Shown here: positions 851-25,796 of the stretch, piece after piece
Layout: each line of letters begins with the position of its first letter
Position numbering within the stretch: the first letter of the stretch is position 1
Origin: Candidatus Bathyarchaeota archaeon
GTDB taxonomy: Archaea; Thermoproteota; Bathyarchaeia; Bathyarchaeales; Bathycorpusculaceae
DNA length: 64,000 bases
NCBI GenBank assembly: GCA_963828195.1
Contig: CAWHDT010000009.1
Span: 64,001-128,000, forward strand
Reading direction: 5' to 3'
The notes under the pieces: generated by a model
Database searches by the model: none
What the model was told of the DNA's origin: nothing
Seen by the model: only the letters and a program-made list of their open reading frames with translations
Program-made: the position numbers and the translations under genes

Positions 851-1227
851 GGTTGCTTTCCAATGCCTAAGCGTATGGAAGGTTATTTTCTATAGTCTTG
901 GGTTCTTGCTTTTCGATACTGCGATTTTTCTGCTGTGCTCTAAGAGTATAGCTGTGATTTTTAGGCTTGTTCCACCGAAGACGTACTTTGATGTTTTTGG
1001 TAAATCTGTTAAGTGTTCTATGAAACGATACAAAATCTCTGTAGTTGGCGTTATTTCTAAAAATAATAAGTTCTGCACTATGTTGTAGGTGTTAACTCAC
1101 ATCGACATAGTTATTTAGGGCATGAATGGGAATACAGAGTTAAGGTTGAGCGGGTTGGAGTACAACCATTTTTTCCCGCATCACTTTTAATAAGAGTTGA
1201 ATTAAACGATTTAACTTTTTAAGAGGA

Positions 1228-1935
1228 TTGATCAAAGTGGAAAATGGAGAAGAAAACGAAAGACTTTCGACGCAAGTTATCATAGCTGCGTTAAACGAGG
1301 AAGAAGGAATCGGATTAACAATAGCTGAACTCCAAGACTATCTGGGTTCCGCTAGAATTTTGGTAGTTGACGGAAATAGTATTGACAGGACCGTAGAAGC
1401 CGCCAAGAACTTGGGCGCTGAAATCGCTTTTCAAGATGGCAGGGGCAAGGGAGACGCGTTAGCCAAAGCTGTTGAACTTATTGACGTTAAAACTGATTAT
1501 GTAATAATTACGGATGCCGACTTCACATACCCAGCAGAATTCATTCCCAAAATGATCCAAATATTGAAAGATGACCCATCCACTGGTATGGTTTGTGGCA
1601 ACAGATTTACTGAAAATTTAGATTCACGTGCCTTGCACAATGTGTTCTACGTTGGAAATCGGCTCATAGCTTTTACTCATAATTTTTTAAACGGAATTCA
1701 TTTATCCGATCCTTTGACTGGGTTACGAGTCGTGCGTGCTGAAATTCTTAGAAACTGGAAAGTTAAATCCAAAGGTTTTGACATCGAGGTGGAGCTTAAT
1801 CATCGAGTAGAGCGAGAAGGTTTTGGTATTATTGAAATCCCAATTAATTATAGAGAAAGATTGGGTGAGAAAAAATTGGGCGTTAGGCACGGCACTGAAA
1901 TTTTAAGACGCATAATGCTGGAAACGATTTACTAG
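1228..1935 (+). CDS. family 2 glycosyltransferase (Dol-P-mannose synthase-like)
   Basis: IIAALNEE, VVDGNSID, GKG, DAD and GFDIEVE motifs. Confidence 0.92.
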   Translation: MIKVENGEENERLSTQVIIAALNEEEGIGLTIAELQDYLGSARILVVDGNSIDRTVEAAKNLGAEIAFQDGRGKGDALAKAVELIDVKTDYVIITDADFTYPAEFIPKMIQILKDDPSTGMVCGNRFTENLDSRALHNVFYVGNRLIAFTHNFLNGIHLSDPLTGLRVVRAEILRNWKVKSKGFDIEVELNHRVEREGFGIIEIPINYRERLGEKKLGVRHGTEILRRIMLETIY

Positions 1936-2434
1936 GGCAAAATTCTTAACGCATAAATAAAGTCTTTTCAAGTGGACGAATTATTAAAAAGCTTCATGAA
2001 TAATTTTGAGCAAAAAGAACACTCCGGTCCGAAGCAGGGACACACAGATCATCAACAGGCATTCCTGCCGAAATCATGATGTCCCCCAAAATAGGATATT
2101 TTGGCGGCGTTGCGAGCATCGGCAAAATGTTGAACCTTTTCTTAAGACCCGACGCCTAAACTTGCGCTTATAACGTTAAAGTCATGGTGTAAAATCCGCA
2201 GTATTCTTCTTTCTCACCTGGTTTTCAACATTACTAATTTGAAAAGACAAAATTTTTAGTCGAGTAAAAACTCGTATTATGTCTATACCCAAAATTTGAA
2301 GGATATTGTCCAACTTGTTCGCTGGAAGTTATTTTTTTGAAATGTGTAATAAAAAAAATGTACAAACTGTGAAAAAAACTGTAACGATGTCAAATATTTA
2401 TACTAAATGACAGCTCTTATGCAATATTAGCGGT

Positions 2435-2635
2435 TTATGCTTTTTTTGGCTTTATTGCTATTTTAACATTTACCTCGACAGTATATTCGTTTTCTAGTTT
2501 TCCAACAGTAAAATGCCAATCTTTTACGTTCACATCCATATCTTTAAAATGACTAGTTAGGGCATCTTTATACTCGTTAACTGTTTGACCTATTTTCTGT
2601 AATCGCTCGGTAACGTCAATATGTTTCTCAGACAT
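2435..2635 (-). CDS. small hypothetical protein
   Basis: GGAGGTG RBS, shared promoter motif upstream. Confidence 0.75.
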   Translation of the reverse strand: MSEKHIDVTERLQKIGQTVNEYKDALTSHFKDMDVNVKDWHFTVGKLENEYTVEVNVKIAIKPKKA

Positions 2636-2749
2636 TCATATGCACCTCCCAAAACAGGATAGACATTATAGTAATTTCTCACACTGCTCATAAGGTTGTG
2701 TGAATGTGGCTTAACAGCTACTAAACCCTAATTCATGCATAACTCAAGT

Positions 2750-3097
2750 TTACTTCATGGCAGACGGTTTAGGAGATCTCAATTGATTTTTTATAATTAT
2801 GATAAGCGATAAAATAAGCAGCGTACCTGTAACGCCTGAAATAATACCCATAATGTCCCAAGCCTTCCATGCCGGCATGAAAGTGCTAAGATATTCTTGC
2901 TGCCCAATTAATAAGAAAAGAGAAGCTGACCCAATTAAAGAAGTTACCAAGACTAACAAAACACTACTGATTACTCCAATGATCAGAAGTTTTTGGAGTC
3001 GTTTCTTGAGAGCAGCCTCAGTTTCGTGCAGATAGGCTCTGAGAATGGACTTAATCTCATTAAAAATTGCATCGACGATTTCCCTTACGAGCGGCAA
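2750..3097 (-). CDS. two-TM membrane protein (holin-superfamily/YqjE-like topology)
   Basis: Amphipathic N-terminus then two hydrophobic helices; family by resemblance only. Confidence 0.6.
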   Translation of the reverse strand: MPLVREIVDAIFNEIKSILRAYLHETEAALKKRLQKLLIIGVISSVLLVLVTSLIGSASLFLLIGQQEYLSTFMPAWKAWDIMGIISGVTGTLLILSLIIIIKNQLRSPKPSAMK

Positions 3098-3200
3098 CTA
3101 ATAGTTACCCCCAAATCTAAATAGCAAGCTAATCACAATCCCATTTGCGCATTATTCAGAAGTAAAACTGAGCGGTGTATTGAGGGTACTTATGCTCTGA

Positions 3201-3629
3201 TTATGGTATTGATGATTTAGGAGCTGCAGAGACCGTGGATGTGTTAGGAGCGATTGAGTTGTTAGCATAACCGGTGGAAAACGGTGCCTGGAATTTGCCT
3301 ATGTTTTCTCTGATTATTCCATAGCCCTGTTCTGCTTCAGTGTTAGGCAAATCACCTAATGATAGTGGTTCTCCGCCGAGCCTAAGGGTACATTTGATAG
3401 TCAACCGCAGTATGCCCTTTTCCAATACAACGTTGGCTATGTCTCGGTAATTGTAATCAGTATAATCCTTCTTTAAACCAAGTGCGTGAGGATGACGAAG
3501 AAGCATACGTTCATTTGTAAAGACGACAGAGTCAATATTAATCTGAGGATGGTAAATTTTCTGTTTAATATACAACTCAACCTTCTCGTTTGGACCCAGT
3601 ATTTTCGATATATCATCAGGAGCATCCAT
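3201..3629 (-). CDS. bacterial-type PH domain protein, paralog 1
   Basis: LGPNEKV...VFTNERMLL...YNYRDIANVVLEKG pattern; start moved to ATG 3629 by alignment with 7763..8179. Confidence 0.85.
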   Translation of the reverse strand: MDAPDDISKILGPNEKVELYIKQKIYHPQINIDSVVFTNERMLLRHPHALGLKKDYTDYNYRDIANVVLEKGILRLTIKCTLRLGGEPLSLGDLPNTEAEQGYGIIRENIGKFQAPFSTGYANNSIAPNTSTVSAAPKSSIP

Positions 3630-4269
3630 AAACTTTAACCAACTTTCCACTGTTAATTGTAGAATTGTAACGAGTGAGGAGATAAATAGCTGTGTGACTG
3701 GGAGGTCACATCTACATCGCACCGAAACTCGACAAAATGCACCTTTTTAGCAATAAGATTTAGAAGTTAAAGCATTAGGTTTTCGAATAACTTTCTAAAG
3801 TATTCAATTGTAAACAACTGCTTAAACGCGTAAACCATTAAATCAAACGCTATATTATTTCCACCAATTGTCGTGGCAATTAAATATCTTACAATATAAT
3901 TTCTAACAAAATAACGGCATTGCAGGGTTTAGACCAAAATCAATTTCGCCATTTACAAAAAAAAATCGGATATTATCTTCTTCATCTGGCGATCTTAGTA
4001 TTCTAATCATTTTAATTTTGGAGACTTCAAAGATATTTTTCTCGCTTTTTGTTAGCCGATTTATTTTTCTTTAAAGCGAAACCTAAGAATCGTTTTGGGA
4101 ACTGATTTTTATTAGAGTAAGTTGGCTTTTTGGGAGATGAGTATGATTAGCGCGGAATTGAGAAGGTCATTAGTAATGTATGAAAGACTGATTCGATTTG
4201 TTTTCGGCTGATGAAGCTCTAAGCTGCTTGAGATAAAAGGTGCAATTCACTCAAAAACAACTGGGCTGT

Positions 4270-4405
4270 AAAAGTGAATTAAAGAACATGCTTTGGCGGA
4301 TCTACACACGTTATCAAGAAGCGAACACTAAGAAGATTTCGAAAGGTACAAATTATTCGCATCTTGTTTAACGCTGATCCGCCGAAGCGTGTGATATTAC
4401 ACTTT
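4270..4405. ncRNA. candidate rod-shaped ncRNA (long imperfect hairpin)
   Basis: 4286-4302 pairs with 4376-4392 (17 bp, 2 G-U on + strand); inner arms cgttatcaagaagcgaa / ttcgcatcttgtttaacg; no ORF; shared promoter motif at 4426-4460. Confidence 0.5.
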
Positions 4406-4635
4406 CATTAATGCTTATCTTTTACAATAAATAACCTTGTGACTGGGGGTCTACAGTAACAGTATTGATAATTTCTAGAAATTTCTTTCTAAACCAGGTT
4501 ACTCAATCGGTCAGATAACAAAAACAACCTATCATTCAAATGTTTATTTCACTCAGTAACAGTTCAACGCTAAACCGCTATCAAAAAAAAAAAATGAAAT
4601 TGACAATTCGACCCATCAATCTATATACTTTCTAA

Positions 4636-5664
4636 CTATTGGACCACTTTGCCTGCAATTGGAAGGGATCTAATTCGCAGATCCTTTTTCCTTTCAATCA
4701 GATCAGTAATTTCATCGAATTCGCTGGTGTAGTCTTTATGTTCCTTAACTAACCTTTTGAGTCTATTTTGGTTAAAGTAGCCTTCGTAAAATCCGAAGAA
4801 CATGATTGCAAAGAAACCATAAACAAGATAATTACCAAATGCTGCAGCTCCTTGCGATATAACTAAGAGTAAAATCGGAAAAAGTACACCAAGAGAACCA
4901 ATGTAAGCCGACATTGCCCCAATTAGAGCGCCCATGACATCAATCTTATTATCATTTATGCTCTTGGCAAGACCAGCTTTTCTTTCCCATAATGTTGATG
5001 TATCGCTGAAATCAACTGCACTGAACAAGCTATCAAAAGCTCCAACCGAAATATTGTTTGTTCGACTTTTGAAAGCGCTGTTCATTTTTAGGTGGTAAAA
5101 CTCGCGATGCTCCTGATATTCACGCTTAATGATTGTGGCATCTATATACGGCGTTCGTCTAACCATACGAAAAGCATACTTTACGTTTTCAACAAACTTT
5201 TTACCTACCAATTCTTGTTCAGCTTTTTTTGCAGCACGCGCCTCATTAAGAATATCTTGTCTTTCTTCTTCCTTCAGAGTTTGCTTCTCTTTAGCAGTCA
5301 TCATTTTGTGAGAAAATCGATGATCATTAGAACATTTGTAAATTATGGTAGAAACCGGCGGAGGTATGCTGTATTCTGAAATTTTTTCTGCACAATAAGG
5401 ACAAATATATCCAGAATCGTCCCAATCTGGAGCTTCATCTATCTTCTTACTATTATCTTTCTCCCACTTTTTTATCCAATGTCTTGTGTGTCCCCAACCG
5501 CCGCTCAAGCTAAGGTATAGAACTTTTGAATCTTGTATCGCTTGCATGATTTCTTCTTCTGTTCGGACTTGACTTTTTTCACATTTTAGTGTGAGTTCCG
5601 CAGGTTTTTCAGGGACGTCTAATGTTTTTTTCTCTTCAACTGTTAACTGCTTTATTTTACTCAT
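4636..5664 (-). CDS. hypothetical protein with Zn-ribbon (CPYC...CSNDH) and two C-terminal TM helices
   Basis: 342-aa ORF; motifs read from translation. Confidence 0.75.
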   Translation of the reverse strand: MSKIKQLTVEEKKTLDVPEKPAELTLKCEKSQVRTEEEIMQAIQDSKVLYLSLSGGWGHTRHWIKKWEKDNSKKIDEAPDWDDSGYICPYCAEKISEYSIPPPVSTIIYKCSNDHRFSHKMMTAKEKQTLKEEERQDILNEARAAKKAEQELVGKKFVENVKYAFRMVRRTPYIDATIIKREYQEHREFYHLKMNSAFKSRTNNISVGAFDSLFSAVDFSDTSTLWERKAGLAKSINDNKIDVMGALIGAMSAYIGSLGVLFPILLLVISQGAAAFGNYLVYGFFAIMFFGFYEGYFNQNRLKRLVKEHKDYTSEFDEITDLIERKKDLRIRSLPIAGKVVQ

Positions 5665-5886
5665 TTTTTTCCTCTACACTCCAACAAGGGCCAGGGATTC
5701 GACTTGTTTTGATTGTTTGTTTTTGCACAAAAATAGAGGGCTCATGACCAATAATTGCATCTTCGTGATTAATCATTCTGCAGATCAACAATTGAGACTG
5801 AGCCATTACACTTTTACCGGGATAATCTGTTAAATTAAGAAAATATGTTGTTGAAAAGTTCGGGGTCATAATTTCAACCTATAGAG

Positions 5887-6042
5887 TTATAATAGTTTGC
5901 GTCCACGAAGCAGTCTAAGTACCACTAGAATTATAACGACAACAATCAAAAGGTCAACCAATCCACCAATTGTGAAAAAGCCAACAAGCCAAAGGACAAA
6001 TAAAACCATCGCGAGGAGTATTATTAAATCATCATTTTTCAT
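5887..6042 (-). CDS. lmo0937/DUF5670-family small membrane protein (51 aa, below ORF track cutoff)
   Basis: MKNDDLIILLAMVLFVLWLVGFFTIGGLVDLLIVVVIILVVLRLLRGRKLL fits the LWLxGF-IGGLI-RLLxGR family pattern; promoter motif upstream. Confidence 0.8.
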   Translation of the reverse strand: MKNDDLIILLAMVLFVLWLVGFFTIGGLVDLLIVVVIILVVLRLLRGRKLL

Positions 6043-6328
6043 AAACTACTTCAACATCTTTTAAGGTATGAAAACTCTATTTAAATGTCTGTGAATGTGA
6101 AGTCCCAGCAACAGTTAAGTTAGCTTTCTAATGCTTTTTTAAAATCATATTGTTTCCGGGCATTGTGAAGAATTAAGCTATTCGTGAATATAATTCCAAT
6201 CATAGAACTAATGAAATCTTGCGATAAATGAACCTGCTATTTATTTGAAAATTTTCTTTATCCATTGTAATTTAATAAAAAAAATGATTTGCAATAGCCA
6301 ACTAAGGCATTTATTGCAAATACTCAAA

Positions 6329-6619
6329 CTAAGTCTTAACTACTGGTCTTAGATACATGTGGAGCTGATCTTTTGAAACTTTCAGTTGTAATCCTTTGTC
6401 TGTCCAGCGTGCAATTCCTTTCTCTAGGGATGAAACGGCCAGCATGTTTCGTACTCCGCCTTTCTTTGCGCCAAGTACTGATTCAGCTATGTTCTTTTCT
6501 AATTCGATTTCAAGATGAGTTACTTTCCAATCTTCTGGGTCTATTCCTAATTCTTTGACTTTGCCAATTTTCAACTCTTCAGCAAAAACATCTTTATCTA
6601 AAAAATCTTTACTATTCAT
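6329..6619 (-). CDS. PRC-barrel domain protein
   Basis: LDKDVF...KIGKVKELGIDPEDWKVTHLEI signature. Confidence 0.85.
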   Translation of the reverse strand: MNSKDFLDKDVFAEELKIGKVKELGIDPEDWKVTHLEIELEKNIAESVLGAKKGGVRNMLAVSSLEKGIARWTDKGLQLKVSKDQLHMYLRPVVKT

Positions 6620-6761
6620 ACAATCTAACCTCCTCTACGCTTATAATTTTGAATACTTTATAAAGGGTCATTGGAAGAGTTAAGCGCTTGTGAATGTGAC
6701 CCTACACCGACACGGCTTTAAAGAATTTGAAACATAAATCCCATGAAAATGAATCTCTTAA

Positions 6762-7577
6762 TTATTCTTCAGCTTTTTTCCAATCAGATTCAAAACTAGT
6801 TCGAAGTACTCCGATAAGGTTGCAGTTATTTGTCCAAAGGGAGGGGCTTTCGCCTAATCCGCTTTCTTTGGAGGTGGTAATTAATGCTTCTTTATCGTCA
6901 GACATTATAAAGTGATTTAGAGGGTCACGATGAAACTTGACATGAACTGAGGCGGTACCGATGAGTTTTTTCACTTTCTCCTTAAGTAAAACATCTGGTT
7001 TTTCGCCTTCAAAAAGCAATCGAATCATAGCTCCCTGCTTTATCGCCAATTTGTATTCATCGGAAAATTGAAACAAAACAGGCATAATCCTTCCCTTGTC
7101 CGCTATTAACGCGACTTCTTTTTTAGAGTTCCTAATCAAATCTGCAGTTTTAGCAAAAATTGATTTCTTTTCCCCTATCAGTATGTAGGTGCTTTCTTCT
7201 TTGGGAAGTGTTTGCTTCCAGTCTTTAAGGGTCAGTTTTTGAACTATTCCCCTCATACCCACAAGTCGCTCATCAGATTTGCCTTTTTCTTCGGATACCA
7301 AGAGGCTTAAAGCATCTGAAATGAGGGTAGCCCTGATCTCAATTGGTTTGCCCAATAATCTTTCAATCAGGCCCATTTTTTCGAGTGACGGCAGAATTCT
7401 GTAGACATCTTCTCTGCGCACTTTTGAAAAGTTTGCTACTTGTCCTACCGTAGTTTTTTCGAGTTTAAGTATTGCTAAGTAAACCTTTGCCTGGTTAAGA
7501 GTTAAACCCAAACCAAGCAGCAAGTCAGTGTTTTCATCGTTCGTCATTCTATCAATTAACATTTTGTATCCTTGCAT
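6762..7577 (-). CDS. TrmB-family transcriptional regulator
   Basis: LGLTLNQAKVYLAIL...REDVYRILPSLEKMGLIE wHTH plus C-terminal PLD-like effector domain (FIMSDDKEALI...FESDWKKA). Confidence 0.92.
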   Translation of the reverse strand: MQGYKMLIDRMTNDENTDLLLGLGLTLNQAKVYLAILKLEKTTVGQVANFSKVRREDVYRILPSLEKMGLIERLLGKPIEIRATLISDALSLLVSEEKGKSDERLVGMRGIVQKLTLKDWKQTLPKEESTYILIGEKKSIFAKTADLIRNSKKEVALIADKGRIMPVLFQFSDEYKLAIKQGAMIRLLFEGEKPDVLLKEKVKKLIGTASVHVKFHRDPLNHFIMSDDKEALITTSKESGLGESPSLWTNNCNLIGVLRTSFESDWKKAEE

Positions 7578-7762
7578 ATTTATGTTTTTAATTTCTTTTG
7601 AAGCTAAAAAAGGGATTACAAAAAAGGATCCCGCAAACGTATTCGAATATGGCGCCTACAGTCAGATCGTGATTAGCTTTATTTTAATAAAATACAAACC
7701 TGCATCTAAAAAAAGTATTAACAGCAAAAAAAGATTTCTAGCGATCGCTAGCTTGCTGGTGG

Positions 7763-8179
7763 CTATTTGGGTACGTTGGGAACAGTCGCATATCCAGTTG
7801 AAAATGGCGATTGGAATTTGCCAATATTTTCTCTGATGATGCCGTATCCCTTTTCTGCAAGATCATTTGGTAAGTTATCCAAATCCAGATGTTCGCCTTC
7901 TTGCTGCTTTCCCTGATTTTCTAACCCGTGCTTAACCGTGAGTTTGATGGTTGAACGTTTTATTCCTTTTTCTAACGTTACATTCGTTATATCTCTATAA
8001 CTGTAATCAGTGTAATCTTTCTTTAAGCCAAGTGCGTGGGGATGCCGAAAAATTATTCGTTCATTCGTTATGATTATTGATTCAATGTTAATTCGAGGAT
8101 GATAGATTTTTTCCTCAATGTACAGCTCAACTTTTTCGTTAGAGCCAAGTATATTCTTTATGTCTTCTGGAGTTGTCAT
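7763..8179 (-). CDS. bacterial-type PH domain protein, paralog 2
   Basis: Highly similar to 3201..3629 (RHPHALGLKKDYTDY, GYGIIRENIGKFQ). Confidence 0.85.
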   Translation of the reverse strand: MTTPEDIKNILGSNEKVELYIEEKIYHPRINIESIIITNERIIFRHPHALGLKKDYTDYSYRDITNVTLEKGIKRSTIKLTVKHGLENQGKQQEGEHLDLDNLPNDLAEKGYGIIRENIGKFQSPFSTGYATVPNVPK

Positions 8180-8327
8180 AATAATCAACCAATTTACTTG
8201 TAGTAATATCACTTATTTCGATAAATAGCTGTGTGACTGGGGAGCCACATAGACAAGAGAGTTACTTCTTGCTTTTCAGAATCTCTTTAGAGAGACTTCT
8301 TCAAAACCCGTAAGAGGAATGTTTAGT

Positions 8328-8654
8328 TTATCCCAATACGAAGCCGATGATTACTCCTACTATGAATCCAATGCTTAACGGTAGGATGCCTATGATGAGT
8401 GCTCCATACTGATAGACGATTGAGCCGTATTGTGTTGCGTAGTTTTTCAACACGTTAAGACTTAAACCGAAAAAGCCAAAGTAGGCAACCACAAAGAGTA
8501 TGATTGCAGCTATGATAGCAATTTTTAGAAATAAATGGATTAGAAAGCCAACAATCAATCCAACAACAAATATTATTATCATTAATATAATTGGTGACAA
8601 ACCGCCTATGCTTCCAGACGTAATGAAATGAAATACTTGACCTAACGCGTCCAA
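8328..8654 (-). CDS. small membrane protein (FUN14-like resemblance)
   Basis: GLIVGFLI...LKIAII...AYFG hydrophobic pattern; promoter motif upstream. Confidence 0.7.
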   Translation of the reverse strand: MDALGQVFHFITSGSIGGLSPIILMIIIFVVGLIVGFLIHLFLKIAIIAAIILFVVAYFGFFGLSLNVLKNYATQYGSIVYQYGALIIGILPLSIGFIVGVIIGFVLG

Positions 8655-8922
8655 AGTCTACAACTCCTCAACAAACGATAGAAGCATAAAAGGGCTTTTA
8701 AGCTTGTGTGGCTGTTTGCCACCAGCAACAGGATGTCTGCTGCTATATTCAAACCCAACATTGTGGGATTATAAAGGAAGAGCGCTTATAAAGTAAAAGA
8801 GTGCTGACAAAAGGAAGGCACTAGTAAAACATAATGTAAATCGAAAAGATAAACAATCCTTTCTAAAAAACAGACTCAAAGAAGTTACAAGAAAAAAAGA
8901 TTTTTTCGATTTTTGGTCTCGC

Positions 8923-9252
8923 CTATTTTGGCTGCGACTTAACGAATATTGATAGTAATCCCAGAAGGGCTCCGAGAATAACTAAAACTCCTCCTATTCC
9001 GCCTGAAACAATTCCAAGCACTAATAGCACTATCGCCCATGGTAAAGTTCCAACAGACTTTGACCCAATTATGCAGATCGCCCCAATTACTATTGCTACT
9101 ATGCTGTACATTACTCCAGTCAAGTAGTGGCCAGCCGGCGAGAAAACGCTACCGAAAGAAGACCCTATAAGGCCAAACAAGCCAAAGACGATTATGAGTA
9201 TTCCACCTATCAACGCAAGGATATATCCCCAATACGCAAAATTATTCTTCAT
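8923..9252 (-). CDS. Gly-rich multi-TM small membrane protein
   Basis: Four hydrophobic segments; GAGGTGA RBS. Confidence 0.8.
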   Translation of the reverse strand: MKNNFAYWGYILALIGGILIIVFGLFGLIGSSFGSVFSPAGHYLTGVMYSIVAIVIGAICIIGSKSVGTLPWAIVLLVLGIVSGGIGGVLVILGALLGLLSIFVKSQPK

Positions 9253-9336
9253 TTTTTAGTTCACCTCTGCAGAAATTTGTTTAGCATCCTAACTGATTAT
9301 TTGAAATAATTTCGCGTGAAAAAATTCACGCTCATT

Positions 9337-9759
9337 TTAGATGTGGGGGAAGAATGTTCCCGGAACCACTATACCAAAGAGGGCCCCAAATATTATGCTA
9401 ACTACGACGAAGATTATCCACGCCAATATGGCTACTGCGATGGCTCCCAGCCAGCCAGTTCTAAAGCTTGCTTTGTAGACCCATATCCACGTTATGAGAG
9501 CTAAAATTAATGCGATTACATAAGCCGTTGAGCCAATTAGCGACCCCAGAAAGTAACCCACTATAATCAATGTGACAGCATAAACTATTGGGCCAAACAA
9601 TGTGGCAAGCATGGCTTCGCCGAAGGTGGCTTTTCCGCCAGTTACTGCTTTGCCGGCTAACCATACGGGTATTGAAACTACAACCCAAAGAATAATCAAA
9701 CCAATTATCGTTACAAGAAGACTCATTAAACTAATATTTCCAATAATAAGATTGCTCAA
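9337..9759 (-). CDS. four-TM membrane protein
   Basis: Hydrophobic 140-aa ORF with AGGTG RBS and promoter motif. Confidence 0.8.
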   Translation of the reverse strand: MSNLIIGNISLMSLLVTIIGLIILWVVVSIPVWLAGKAVTGGKATFGEAMLATLFGPIVYAVTLIIVGYFLGSLIGSTAYVIALILALITWIWVYKASFRTGWLGAIAVAILAWIIFVVVSIIFGALFGIVVPGTFFPHI

Positions 9760-10023
9760 AGGCTACACCTGTTAAGTTACTTAGGGGTGTGGATAAGTAT
9801 TAAGTCTGTGTGGCTGTAGCCCCCCATCAACAAAGCGGTATGTTGTTTGAAAAAACCATAGTTCCGACCTAGAGCGCAAAACTGCACGATTAAGTGGGAC
9901 AGTGGAGCTTGATACTTAAGCCATCTGCAAACAAAAACCCCGTCATGCCCTGATGTTGCCGTTACTTTGTAATCACACACGCTTAAGTTTGTAAATGACG
10001 ACCTATCGGTAGAGGTGAATGCA

Positions 10024-10161
10024 ATGGCAGGAGCGAAGAGAAAAGTTGAAAATGCCGCGGAAGAAACTGGAGAGGCAGTTGGCAAAGGCATCAAAAAGGG
10101 TGCTAAAGCTGTGGATGATTTTGGAAAGGGTCTAAAGAAGGAACTCAAGAAAAAAGACTAA
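10024..10161 (+). CDS. 45-aa LEA/CsbD-like hydrophilic protein (below ORF track cutoff)
   Basis: MAGAKRKVENAAEETGEAVGKGIKKGAKAVDDFGKGLKKELKKKD; GAGGTGA RBS; promoter motif; T-rich tract after. Confidence 0.8.
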   Translation: MAGAKRKVENAAEETGEAVGKGIKKGAKAVDDFGKGLKKELKKKD

Positions 10162-10255
10162 AATAAGCAAATTCCCTTTTCACAAACAAAAAAGAAAAGT
10201 ACTTGTTTTTATTTATTGACTCATAGAATTCAAACTGTTCTTGGATTGAAATTTT

Positions 10256-11257
10256 TTGGAAAACCATGAATATAACTTTCAGGAAACATTCAGGTTAGCC
10301 CTTAGACTGTATCGTGGTTTTCTCTTAAACTCACTGGGCATAAAAGCTCCAATGATAAGTGGACACAAATTAACTTATAACTGCAACCTTAAATGTAAAA
10401 TGTGTCCGTTCTGGAAACGATCCAACGAAAATTTAAGCACCCAAAAAGAAAAAGAAATTCTAAAGCAAATTTACGATTCAGGCGTTTGCGCAGTGGGGTT
10501 TGAAGGCGGAGAGCCGCTTTTAAGAAAAGACTTGCCTGAAATTTTAGCGTATTCTCGCTCTCTGCCTCTACATACAAGTCTTATCACCAATGGAACGCTG
10601 CTCAAATCAAGGATAGATGAGATCGCACCATACATCAACGGCATTCTGTTTGTTTCGCTGGATGGTCTGGAGAAAACTCATGACGCCATAAGAGGGGTTA
10701 ATGGCTGCTTCAAAAATGCGGTGCAGGGCATAAATGCTGCTAAGAGGAAGGTTTCTGTAACAATTAATACGACTATTATGGCTGAAAACCTCGATGACGT
10801 GGAAGATACGGTGAAGTTGGCTAAGGATTTGGGTGTGAGAATAGTTTTGTCAGCTTCTCATGAGTACCATGATGTCGAATCTTCTGCGCCTGAAGCCGTT
10901 GGAATCAAGAAGCTTGCAAACCAGCTTATTGAATTAAAAAAACAAGGCTACCCAATCATGAATTCAATTAATTACTTTAAAGTACTAGCTAAAGAGAAAA
11001 GCTGGCAGTGCAAACCATGGGCAATAGTAAACATTGATCCAAACGGACAAGCCGTCTTGCCGTGCTATGTTCACAATGATTACGCAAGCAGCATACCTAT
11101 TTCTGGAACTGGCATAAAAAACGCTGTTAATCAATTTGACTGGAAAAAAATCGAAAACTGCCAAAAATGCGGTCTGCATTGTTATGTTGAGCCTTCTTTG
11201 GTGCTTTCATGGGATTTTAGAGCGTACATGCATTGGGGTCTTCATGTTAACGTCTAA
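10256..11257 (+). CDS. radical SAM protein (PTO1314-family-like)
   Basis: CNLKCKMC cluster motif, GGEPLLR, C-terminal Cys cluster C..C.LHCYVEPS. Confidence 0.88.
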   Translation: MENHEYNFQETFRLALRLYRGFLLNSLGIKAPMISGHKLTYNCNLKCKMCPFWKRSNENLSTQKEKEILKQIYDSGVCAVGFEGGEPLLRKDLPEILAYSRSLPLHTSLITNGTLLKSRIDEIAPYINGILFVSLDGLEKTHDAIRGVNGCFKNAVQGINAAKRKVSVTINTTIMAENLDDVEDTVKLAKDLGVRIVLSASHEYHDVESSAPEAVGIKKLANQLIELKKQGYPIMNSINYFKVLAKEKSWQCKPWAIVNIDPNGQAVLPCYVHNDYASSIPISGTGIKNAVNQFDWKKIENCQKCGLHCYVEPSLVLSWDFRAYMHWGLHVNV

Positions 11258-11405
11258 ACTTAGGCAATTGGGAATCTGAGCCAAAACTCGAAGACCAATT
11301 TTGCGGTAAAACTTAAATTTTCATGGTTGGTTCGATACAGTCACATAGTCTTATGTGTTATTTCGTTTTCTCTTTTTGTTTCTCCTAGTGTGGAGGTGAA
11401 TGTTT

Positions 11406-11573
11406 TTGTCAAAGAATACGCGTCCCGAAAATATGGAGCCCAAAATGACTTCCGACGGCAAATACCTCTGTGAAGCGGACAACAAAAAATTCAGCACAAA
11501 AGAAGACTACACTAAGCATTGCTCAGAAGCCCACACGAAAAGCAGAGAAAATAAAGCAAATGAAGAGTGGTAG
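11406..11573 (+). CDS. 55-aa C2H2-like zinc-finger microprotein (C-x2-D...H-x4-H)
   Basis: YLCEADNKKFSTKEDYTKHCSEAH; GGAGGTGA RBS before TTG; promoter motif upstream. Confidence 0.75.
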   Translation: MSKNTRPENMEPKMTSDGKYLCEADNKKFSTKEDYTKHCSEAHTKSRENKANEEW

Positions 11574-11880
11574 TCGTTAAATGCAACAAAGACGATTACC
11601 CCTTTTTTTTCGGGTGCCGCGGAAAAAAATTAGGACATGAATAAACCAGCTATTATGGTCTCTGGTTCACGCGATAATGTTTATTTTAATGTTAAAGAAA
11701 TGTTTATATCGGATAATGGTGCTTCTGATAGAATTCAGCTATAATTGCTAGCCCCGCAATTTTCACATGGCGGCGGCTCAACCCCTACCGAAACGGCGTT
11801 TGCCTTGCAGGAATGACGGAGTTGGCCTCCAATTGCGGGGACACGAATGTGGACCTGACTAATTGCTCAGTTAGGTCTGA

Positions 11881-13582
<1,702 letters not shown>

Positions 13583-25623: not shown

Positions 25624-25796
25624 TGCAACTTTCCCTTAGCACATTGAGAAAAAACTGTTTCTTTATATAATCGCCAATAATCGCAAGACCCCAAAAAAAC
25701 AAGTTTTAAAAAGCCATAGAATCTACCTAATGAACGGAATAAAGCCAAATTTATGGGCTGTCCAAAAAGGTGATCCATCAAAACAAGGATTGAATC
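25624..25796 (+). CRISPR. CRISPR leader-like region (about 25624-25759) plus one 37-bp repeat (25760-25796); no spacer array
   Basis: GTCCAAAAAGGTGATCCATCAAAACAAGGATTGAATC resembles the 37-nt GATCC...AAAACAAGGATTGAAAC repeat family found with Cas6b; AT-rich region after cas4; no second copy seen. Confidence 0.75.

Follow-up and report, generated by a model that had tools for sequence, protein, structure and literature searches.

Several described systems come close to the one we report here. In Thermococcales the 17-bp Thermococcales glycolytic motif (TGM), TATCAC-N5-GTGATA, is read by a dimeric winged-helix factor, TrmBL1 (Tgr), at dozens of promoters. Ptr2, TFB-RF1 and TrmBL1 at activated promoters are characterised archaeal activators with sites directly upstream of the TFB-recognition element (BRE), and many archaeal regulators repress by blocking TBP or TFB. 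In bacteria, lmo0937, CsbD and YciG belong to the SigB/RpoS general stress regulons, and the CRP/FNR-type site is TGTGA-N6-TCACA. The Bathyarchaeia are abundant in soils, peat and sediments and are largely uncultured, and we know of nothing about gene regulation in them. A limited literature search combining Bathyarchaeia, TATA box and motif had a single match, which concerns methyl-coenzyme M reductase and not promoters. Here we describe a 24-bp palindrome that sits at a fixed distance from TATA boxes in a Candidatus Bathyarchaeota archaeon. The analysis centers on 64,000 nucleotides of contig CAWHDT010000009.1, which we call the window (C9:64001-128000 in our numbering of this genome, G000); the whole genome is 2.83 Mb in 9 contigs, with 44% G+C. 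Positions given without a contig are positions in the window.

A preliminary description of this DNA had reported ten boxes, each between a TATA-like hexamer and, in many cases, an upstream GTTG, and each oriented with the downstream gene. We located all ten in the orientation given, with the quoted hexamer after each. On the minus strand their first bases are at 2706, 3700, 4445, 6097, 6696, 8239, 8714 and 9816, and on the plus strand at 11338 and, for the AATCACACA variant, at about 9971. We seeded a position weight matrix (PWM) with these ten sites, iterated it over the genome and then symmetrised it. The iteration converged on a two-fold symmetric element of 24 bp, TGTKRYTGT-N6-ACARYMACA. 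The CAGTCACA box is the TATA-proximal half of this palindrome and the GTTG is its distal half-site (TGTTGCTG). Within each half, a fixed TGT and a fixed TG enclose three bases that are K-R-Y. The palindrome has an inner pair, TGT-N6-ACA, and an outer pair, TGT-N18-ACA.

The palindrome is far more frequent than expected. As a control we used the reversed, non-complemented genome. At 12 bits or more there are 86 sites in the genome against 7 in the control, at 14 bits or more 77 against 3, and at 20 bits 47 against none. The regulon would therefore not stop at the ten promoters first proposed: judging from the sites, it may comprise about 60–85 promoters in this genome, about 60 of them with a clear TATA box and a gene. 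A coordinated set of promoters was a sound idea, and ten was too narrow a count. Two of the 86 sites were probably counted twice, as the locus of a KGG-repeat protein, with its two sites, is present in identical copies at contig ends (C1:445456-446601 and C7:332696-333841), probably one repeat that broke the assembly.

The window holds the densest part of this distribution. The half-site pattern CAKYCACA occurs 19 times in it, compared with 6.78 ± 2.49 expected from 100 dinucleotide shuffles, none of which reached 19. Ten of the 19 matches fall in 2699-11345, and one of these, at 10110, is within a coding region and is not a promoter. The full palindrome with two mismatches or fewer has seven matches against 0.79 ± 0.91 expected (none of the 100 shuffles reached seven), and all seven fall within 3693-11345. 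A PWM scan of the window gave 11 sites of at least 11 bits, every one in 1084-11345, while the remaining 52 kb has just two weaker matches, of 8.4 and 9.2 bits. Four further sites lie on the same contig just upstream of the window, one each before a small paralogue of the window's 55-aa gene, an operon headed by COX2, a thermosome gene and PPDK. Altogether C9:48.5-75.3 kb carries about 15 of the 86 sites.

The sites are placed as promoter elements would be. Seventy-two of the 86 are intergenic, compared with 14.9% of the genome on our gene calls. Using a TATA matrix learned from 1292 upstream regions, we found that 45 of the 172 sides have their best TATA core starting exactly 4 nt beyond the site and that 10 have it at 6 nt; on the others it is at scattered positions. 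For 5000 random intergenic 24-mers, only 3.1% of sides have a TATA at offsets 3–5. Start codons are mostly 30–140 nt downstream of the sites. By our criteria a TATA box and a gene are found on one side at 53 sites, on both sides at 5 and on neither at 28.

The 53 one-sided promoters, oriented to the gene, show what is conserved. Both halves of the site have similar information content, the 6-nt spacer has close to none, and outside the site and the TATA box conservation vanishes. The halves differ at one place: position 20, in the proximal half, is C in 0.76 of the sites and the mirrored distal position is G in just 0.37. The general promoter consensus of this genome is AAA-NN-YTTAAA, so that the ordinary BRE is the AAA at -5 to -3 relative to the TATA box. 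The motif promoters share with ordinary ones an A three bases ahead of the TATA, present in 0.78 of them, and because of this we consider that a remnant of the ordinary BRE co-exists with the site. The last three bases of the site are at -7 to -5, where general promoters are A-rich. The site thus abuts the BRE position and overlaps its upstream edge, which is what had been seen earlier, yet it is not a BRE, variant or otherwise. A BRE is a short (about 6–7 bp), asymmetric and purine-rich element; this one is 24 bp long and two-fold symmetric, and shares with a BRE its fixed place beside the TATA box and its orientation to the gene. A symmetric site that is in excess and concentrated between genes is what we expect of a transcription factor regulon.

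The motif is conserved in relatives. To count it there we used the exact pattern TGTKRYTG-N8-CARYMACA with built-in controls, which does not depend on gene calls; genomes of one clade are non-independent samples in all of these counts. Within the genus, 22 of the 24 other genomes have the motif, with 1–25 matches each (controls 0–1), and G006 and G018 have none. In the family, 38 of 151 sampled genomes (this one included) have a match and every control is 0. Five or more matches occur in 22 genomes from 10 of the 70 genera, mostly the larger genomes, among them G116 with 37, G087 and G186 with 22 each, G134 with 21 and G061 with 15. Further out, in the order, 1 of 16 genomes from 11 other families has one match, and in the class, 19 of 201 genomes have a match, of which G248 (40) and G348 (7) are notable outside the family. 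The contigs of the relatives come from metagenome-assembled genomes of Bathyarchaeia or Bathyarchaeota from bog, fen, palsa, SPRUCE peat and Danish soils.

Sites are also kept before orthologous genes. For each open reading frame (ORF) downstream of a site in another genome that had a BLAST hit in this one, we checked whether its top BLAST hit here was among our 61 targets, which are 1.8% of 3448 proteins. This was the case for 13 of 23 in G003 and G014, for 14 of 20 in G116, which belongs to another genus, and for 4 of 9 in G248, which belongs to another family. The recurring targets are Hsp20, a PH-domain protein, the COX2 and blue-copper genes, TatA, an F420-type oxidoreductase, a TFS paralogue, C2H2 microproteins, an Sso10a-type gene and the membrane protein 8328-8654. 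Of 30 related Hsp20 loci, 10 have a site, which is 47–65 nt upstream of the match. The 4-nt offset between site and TATA is kept in G116, G248 and G348. G348 also has an island of 10 kb (C5:19000-34000, L248) with seven strong sites, including three identical 24-mers, around a 471-aa gene for a TrmB-like protein; few genes in this island resemble targets of our genome.

What the targets encode was examined by a Pfam scan of 69 proteins, made up of the 61 distinct proteins behind 63 promoter sides, their probable operon partners and a TrmB-family protein of the window; targets were assigned by simple scripts. Stress protection is well represented, with two KGG-repeat proteins (53.7 and 30.9 bits, cut-off 20.4), Hsp20 (77.9 bits), a thermosome subunit, two bacterial PH-domain proteins, an lmo0937-family protein (NCBIfam NF033488, 31.4 bits, cut-off 30; DUF5670), a cupin, DUF1059 and two Lrp-ligand-domain/GYD proteins. 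With the lmo0937, KGG and Hsp20 families and the PH domains among the targets, the general-stress character suggested earlier is borne out. A second group is concerned with respiration and copper: two COX2 genes, a multicopper oxidase, a plastocyanin-like protein, TatA, a fasciclin and an F420-type oxidoreductase. Two haem-copper oxidase loci are targets, and one COX2 heads a COX2-COX1-COX3-COX4-sulfocyanin-UbiA operon. In the motif-driven oxidase operon, which is outside the window, the COX1 gene (C9:51263-52880, L159 7266-8880) is broken up into two ORFs, of 103 and 453 aa, which overlap and account for profile positions 1-62 and 67-436; a frameshift, an error in the assembly or a wrongly called start could explain this. 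A search of the genome for AmoA had no match, and neither did its control.

The remaining targets are PPDK, a glpX-type FBPase and citrate synthase from central metabolism, surface proteins, and regulators, namely a TFS paralogue, two Sso10a/HTH_45 proteins, a PadR and several C2H2 zinc-finger microproteins. Housekeeping genes are few: an EF-2-like gene and TyrRS, both with sites inside called genes at atypical offsets. The list probably misses some members of the regulon, because the gene at C8:107852-108850 (331 aa) has orthologues behind strong sites in G003 and G116, and here has a weaker, non-symmetric match nearby in the first scan.

Compared with the TGM and TrmBL1, the likeness is that of a palindrome at dozens of promoters, lying upstream of the BRE and TATA box at activated genes, with gluconeogenic targets (here PPDK and the glpX-type FBPase). 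The sequence is different, with 24 bp and another spacing, the placement is uniform here (4 or 6 nt before the TATA) and position-dependent there, and the targets here are mainly for stress and respiration. The Ptr2 and TFB-RF1 sites are likewise directly upstream of the BRE, which implies recruitment of TBP/TFB, but each is known from few promoters, in contrast to the roughly 60–85 promoters with base-exact spacing in this genome. With the SigB regulon of Bacillus and Listeria and the RpoS regulon of E. coli there is shared gene content, in the lmo0937, KGG-repeat (YciG-like), Hsp20 and bacterial PH-domain proteins. Those regulons depend on an alternative sigma factor, whereas here there is a symmetric site on an ordinary archaeal TATA/BRE promoter, and the regulon also has terminal oxidase operons and copper proteins. 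Many copies resemble a CRP/FNR site in their outer half-sites, TGTGA...TCACA, and in a class II-like arrangement abutting the core promoter. However, TGTGA and TCACA are 14 bp apart here and not 6, and there is a second conserved TG/CA pair inside.

We believe, with moderate confidence, that the palindrome is an upstream activating site for one dimeric (or dimer-of-dimers) factor, most likely of the winged-helix type. Such a factor would bind the 24-bp inverted repeat, which ends 4 nt, or less often 6 nt, before the TATA core and whose last bases overlap the upstream edge of the BRE. Once bound it would contact TFB/TBP and activate transcription as at a classical archaeal upstream activating site. 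The regulon under its control would include stress protection, aerobic respiration and copper proteins, gluconeogenic enzymes and several small regulators. A dimeric reader is needed because the 24-bp symmetric site has its distal half conserved without a TATA on that side. We favor an activator because the site is directly upstream of the BRE at a base-exact distance from the TATA, while occlusion would tolerate variable placement. We infer binding by a protein, an activating effect, and stress, oxygen or starvation as the signal. The K-R-Y between the fixed TGT and TG would suit a recognition helix plus wing, or indirect readout of flexible TG steps.

Several points weigh against this reading. 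Fourteen of the 86 sites are inside called genes, and 28 have no clear TATA box with a gene on either side. Promoter function and the sign of regulation are both read from sequence geometry, and as the site reaches into the upstream edge of the BRE, a protein on it could just as well keep TFB away and repress. The genome scanned with the PWM is also the one used to train it, the exact pattern used for the other genomes was read off that PWM, and the genes are from our own simple dicodon-based caller (3448 genes, 85% coding). In addition, no candidate for the factor is distributed among the genomes as the single regulator should be. Our leads are the TrmB family, the Sso10a/HTH_45 family and PadR. 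The TrmB-family gene embedded in the site cluster (6762-7577, minus strand) has full-length orthologues at 75% identity or more in only three of the 24 genus genomes (G002, G003 and G019), with fragments in G013. The Sso10a-type gene at C6:24721 is in nine of the 24 and is absent from G248 and G348, and the PadR gene at C5:892145 has orthologues of at least 55% identity in seven.

The alternative that survives best is that the palindrome is a repressor operator. In that case a dimer would cover the upstream edge of the BRE and keep TFB off, and the stress and respiration genes would be released on its departure. The position of the last three bases of the site, which would put a bound protein beside or on the BRE, is consistent with this, and blocking of TBP/TFB is common among archaeal regulators. 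Two observations make it less attractive, and neither is decisive. Occlusion allows variable placement, yet the spacing is rigid, and the bulk of the site is upstream of the BRE, where characterised activators bind, and not over the TATA or the start. We regard repression as a possibility of fairly low probability.

Activation could also be the work of the embedded TrmB itself, or of its paralogues in other genomes, binding the palindrome. This was one of the regulators proposed in the preliminary description, and it is a special case of the activator reading. TrmB-family proteins are dimeric winged-helix regulators of palindromes, and the protein does belong to the family (PF01978, 52.5 bits, cut-off 25.6). 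Its nearest solved relatives are TrmBL2 chains; as an equivalog of TrmBL2, TrmBL1 or TrmB it was rejected, with 25.2, 19.6 and 17.7 bits against cut-offs of 530, 650 and 500. It has a weak, sub-threshold match to HTH_Crp_2, and no search was made for a CRP-family protein. Sites are at their densest here in the island that holds the gene, and in G003 the orthologue is likewise placed. In G116, a 76%-identical orthologue has three sites at a distance of about 1 kb on contig C136. A single TrmB-like match reaches E 1e-20 in G348, which belongs to another family, and it is the gene inside the island with its seven strong sites. TrmB-family genes are thus found within motif-dense islands of two independent lineages, which keeps the protein among the weak candidates. 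In the genus the family has expanded, to as many as 21 matches per genome, and the two motif-free genomes there have one match (G006) and none (G018).

These associations are offset by the distribution of the gene. Besides the narrow range in the genus, orthologues at 65% identity or more are found in only seven of the 21 other motif-rich genomes of the family sample, and in three motif-poor ones. The motif-rich genomes G061, G063, G087, G123 and G134 have at best 29–36% identical relatives, and no homologue reaches E 1e-20 in G248, a genome with 40 sites and with other TrmB-domain genes. None of the seven TrmB genes in this genome has an upstream site. This includes the embedded one (best score -7.4), whose promoter was correctly said to lack the motif. 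There are also at least eight copies per genome, so some co-location is expected by chance. The embedded TrmB thus makes an improbable activator of this set.

We made two other observations on TrmB genes. Orthologues that are 70–72% identical to the embedded TrmB, in three other genera, have one in-frame TAG each (G107:C4:3743-4528, G121:C18:47773-48558 and G099:C3:835891-836676); G107 has 3 motif matches and the other two genomes have 0–1. A different palindrome, GGTGGGT-G-ACCCACC, flanked by TGTTG and ATCACA, is found at C1:161062-161271, upstream of the TrmB-family gene C1:160324-161061. Scored with the 24-bp matrix it reaches -3.8 at best, which is no fit, and it may be the operator of that regulator.

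The Sso10a family has so far been regarded mainly as chromatin proteins. The Sso10a-type gene at C6:24721 (NF053610, 72.8 bits, cut-off 60; PDB 1r7j, E 2.2e-06) is one of the regulators among the targets. A site of 17–25 bits is kept in all ten orthologous loci examined, 151–165 nt upstream of the aligned start in nine of them; the 262 nt in L100 arise because the match there begins at residue 34. G320 and G306 have the same arrangement. At E 1e-12 or better the gene is found in 13 of the 22 motif-rich family genomes and in none of 129 others. Its distribution is too narrow for a universal regulator, and we rejected it as such; it marks a conserved target. G248 has a different Sso10a-type gene behind a site. 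More generally, four of the 21 HTH_45 genes here have a site of at least 16 bits within 600 nt upstream, two of them directly adjacent, compared with 95 of 3447 genes overall. An alignment of the Sso10a-type targets of G000, G116 and G248 with non-target paralogues had no region peculiar to the targets, and a second Sso10a-type gene, C5:117448, was rejected as the factor (orthologues of at least 50% identity in five of the 24 genus genomes, all from one clade).

One specific version of the activator reading, which we consider doubtful, takes these genes further. In a clade of soil and peat Bathyarchaeia, a programme for stress and oxygen exposure, of up to about 85 promoters, would be run by one activator bound at a base-exact distance from the TATA, and this activator would come from the Sso10a family, evolve fast and regulate its own gene. 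It would be the counterpart of bacterial class II activation and would do the job of a sigma factor. The winged-helix domains of the family, linked by a rod, would fit the outer TGT/ACA triplets, which are 21 bp apart. The passages searched in PMC4941522 place the two domains of Sso10a on opposite sides of an antiparallel coiled coil and give no distance between them. Among sequencing runs that share words with the window at 2400-11600, those listed were three soil DNA runs, with small shares, and no RNA run.

The PadR gene at C5:892145 is a target as well, with a weaker site kept in eight of nine loci, and was rejected as the factor on its distribution. PadR operators have the form ATGT-N8-ACAT, and neither the inner nor the outer pair of our palindrome has that spacing.

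An alternative TFB paralogue reading a non-canonical BRE, in the manner of a sigma factor selecting promoters, was the other mechanism in the preliminary description. The genome does have three TFB genes, and the preference for C at position 20 of the proximal half would fit an added constraint from contact with TFB. Against it, the distal half, 15–24 bp upstream of the BRE, is equally conserved at the 53 one-sided promoters, while a BRE is short and asymmetric, and a symmetry of 24 bp is beyond a TFB monomer. The number of TFB genes does not follow the motif: in the motif-rich G116, G087, G186, G134 and G061 there are four cyclin-repeat matches (two TFB genes), the number that most motif-free genomes have as well, and none of the three TFB genes here has a site. 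We think this explanation very unlikely. The preliminary observation itself stands, and with more weight than was first given to it. Its interpretation was right in spirit, as a stress-type regulon marked by a promoter element where the BRE would be, and wrong in mechanism. Least probable of all is that the sites are not regulatory and represent a dispersed repeat, or the end of a mobile element, with a promoter on it by chance: some sites are indeed copies (the KGG locus at the ends of C1 and C7, the promoters at C9:48543 and C9:75322, which share flanks and precede paralogous genes, and the identical 24-mers in G348), but the lack of information in spacer and flanks leaves no longer repeated unit, the genes behind the sites are unrelated, and the same genes keep the site in other genomes where the surrounding sequence has diverged.

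The individual sites of the window, in order of position, are as follows. The first, 1084..1107 (plus strand, 11.2 bits), is an eleventh site that had been overlooked; its TATA (TTATTTA) begins 4 nt downstream and it precedes a GT2 glycosyltransferase gene (1237-1935, Pfam Glycos_transf_2). The site at 2699..2722 (minus, 15.2 bits) has a TATA at offset 4 and a start codon 64 nt away, that of a 66-aa gene (2435-2635) whose paralogue at C5:87408 likewise has a site. Next is 3693..3716 (minus, 19.0 bits), before the first bacterial PH-domain gene (3201-3629, bPH_3 E 2.7e-10); gene and site are kept in G003 and G248, and the membrane protein gene 2750-3097 is probably co-transcribed with it.

The site with the highest score, 4438..4461 (minus, 23.8 bits), has a TATA and no credible ORF downstream, the longest on the minus strand being 20–35 aa. 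The minus strand of 4180-4405 folds into a long hairpin with a minimum free energy of -56.1 kcal/mol (z = -3.14), and only one of 200 shuffles folded equally well. Judging from this fold, the site may drive a structured non-coding RNA (about 4405-4180, minus), which would be a small RNA of the regulon. The site at 6090..6113 (minus, 23.2 bits) is before the lmo0937-family gene (5887-6042), with which the genes 5657-5869 and 4636-5664 probably share a transcript. The stretch 3717-6290 has no counterpart in the syntenic locus of G003.

The site at 6689..6712 (minus, 16.1 bits), which has an orthologous site in G003, precedes a 96-aa gene (6329-6619) with a weak PRC-barrel likeness (PRC E 0.011, 16.1 bits, under the cut-off of 21.2). 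The site at 8232..8255 (minus, 11.8 bits) has a weak distal half and is before the second PH-domain gene (7763-8179, bPH_3 E 2.4e-10). At 8707..8730 (minus, 23.0 bits) is the site of the membrane protein gene 8328-8654, which has an orthologue carrying a site in G003 and in G116. The site at 9809..9832 (minus, 22.6 bits) precedes another membrane protein gene (9337-9759), with an orthologue behind a site in G003, and the gene 8923-9252 is probably in the same transcript.

The two remaining sites are on the plus strand. The one at 9954..9977 (17.4 bits) is before a 45-aa lysine-rich gene (10024-10161), which again has an orthologue with a site in G003 and which is followed by a PTO1314-family radical SAM gene (10256-11257, TIGR03961, 337 bits, cut-off 306). 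The one at 11322..11345 (15.6 bits) is before a 55-aa gene (11406-11573) whose paralogue at C9:48629 is also behind a site. As for the family names first given to these small proteins, the lmo0937 protein, the two PH-domain proteins and the zinc-finger microproteins are among the targets and the PRC-barrel is a weak match. CsbD, LEA and FUN14 are unsupported, with no Pfam match at E up to 5 among the window proteins.

Beyond the site cluster, the window has a complete archaeal 16S rRNA gene at 12010-13504 and no 23S rRNA gene across its 64 kb, so the rRNA genes appear to be unlinked here. A single Rfam match to CRISPR-DR7 is found at 25760-25796 (38.4 against a gathering score of 37).

The regulon and its motif are new, while the kind of system is familiar and involves no new principle. 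The base-exact spacing to the TATA would make these promoters a clean model for how an archaeal activator contacts TFB/TBP. As the element is defined by its sequence, any metagenome bin can be searched for it, and it is a simple bait for finding the factor. For the Bathyarchaeia that carry it, the palindrome would mark the genes that are switched together: chaperones, small stress proteins, terminal oxidases, copper proteins and gluconeogenesis.

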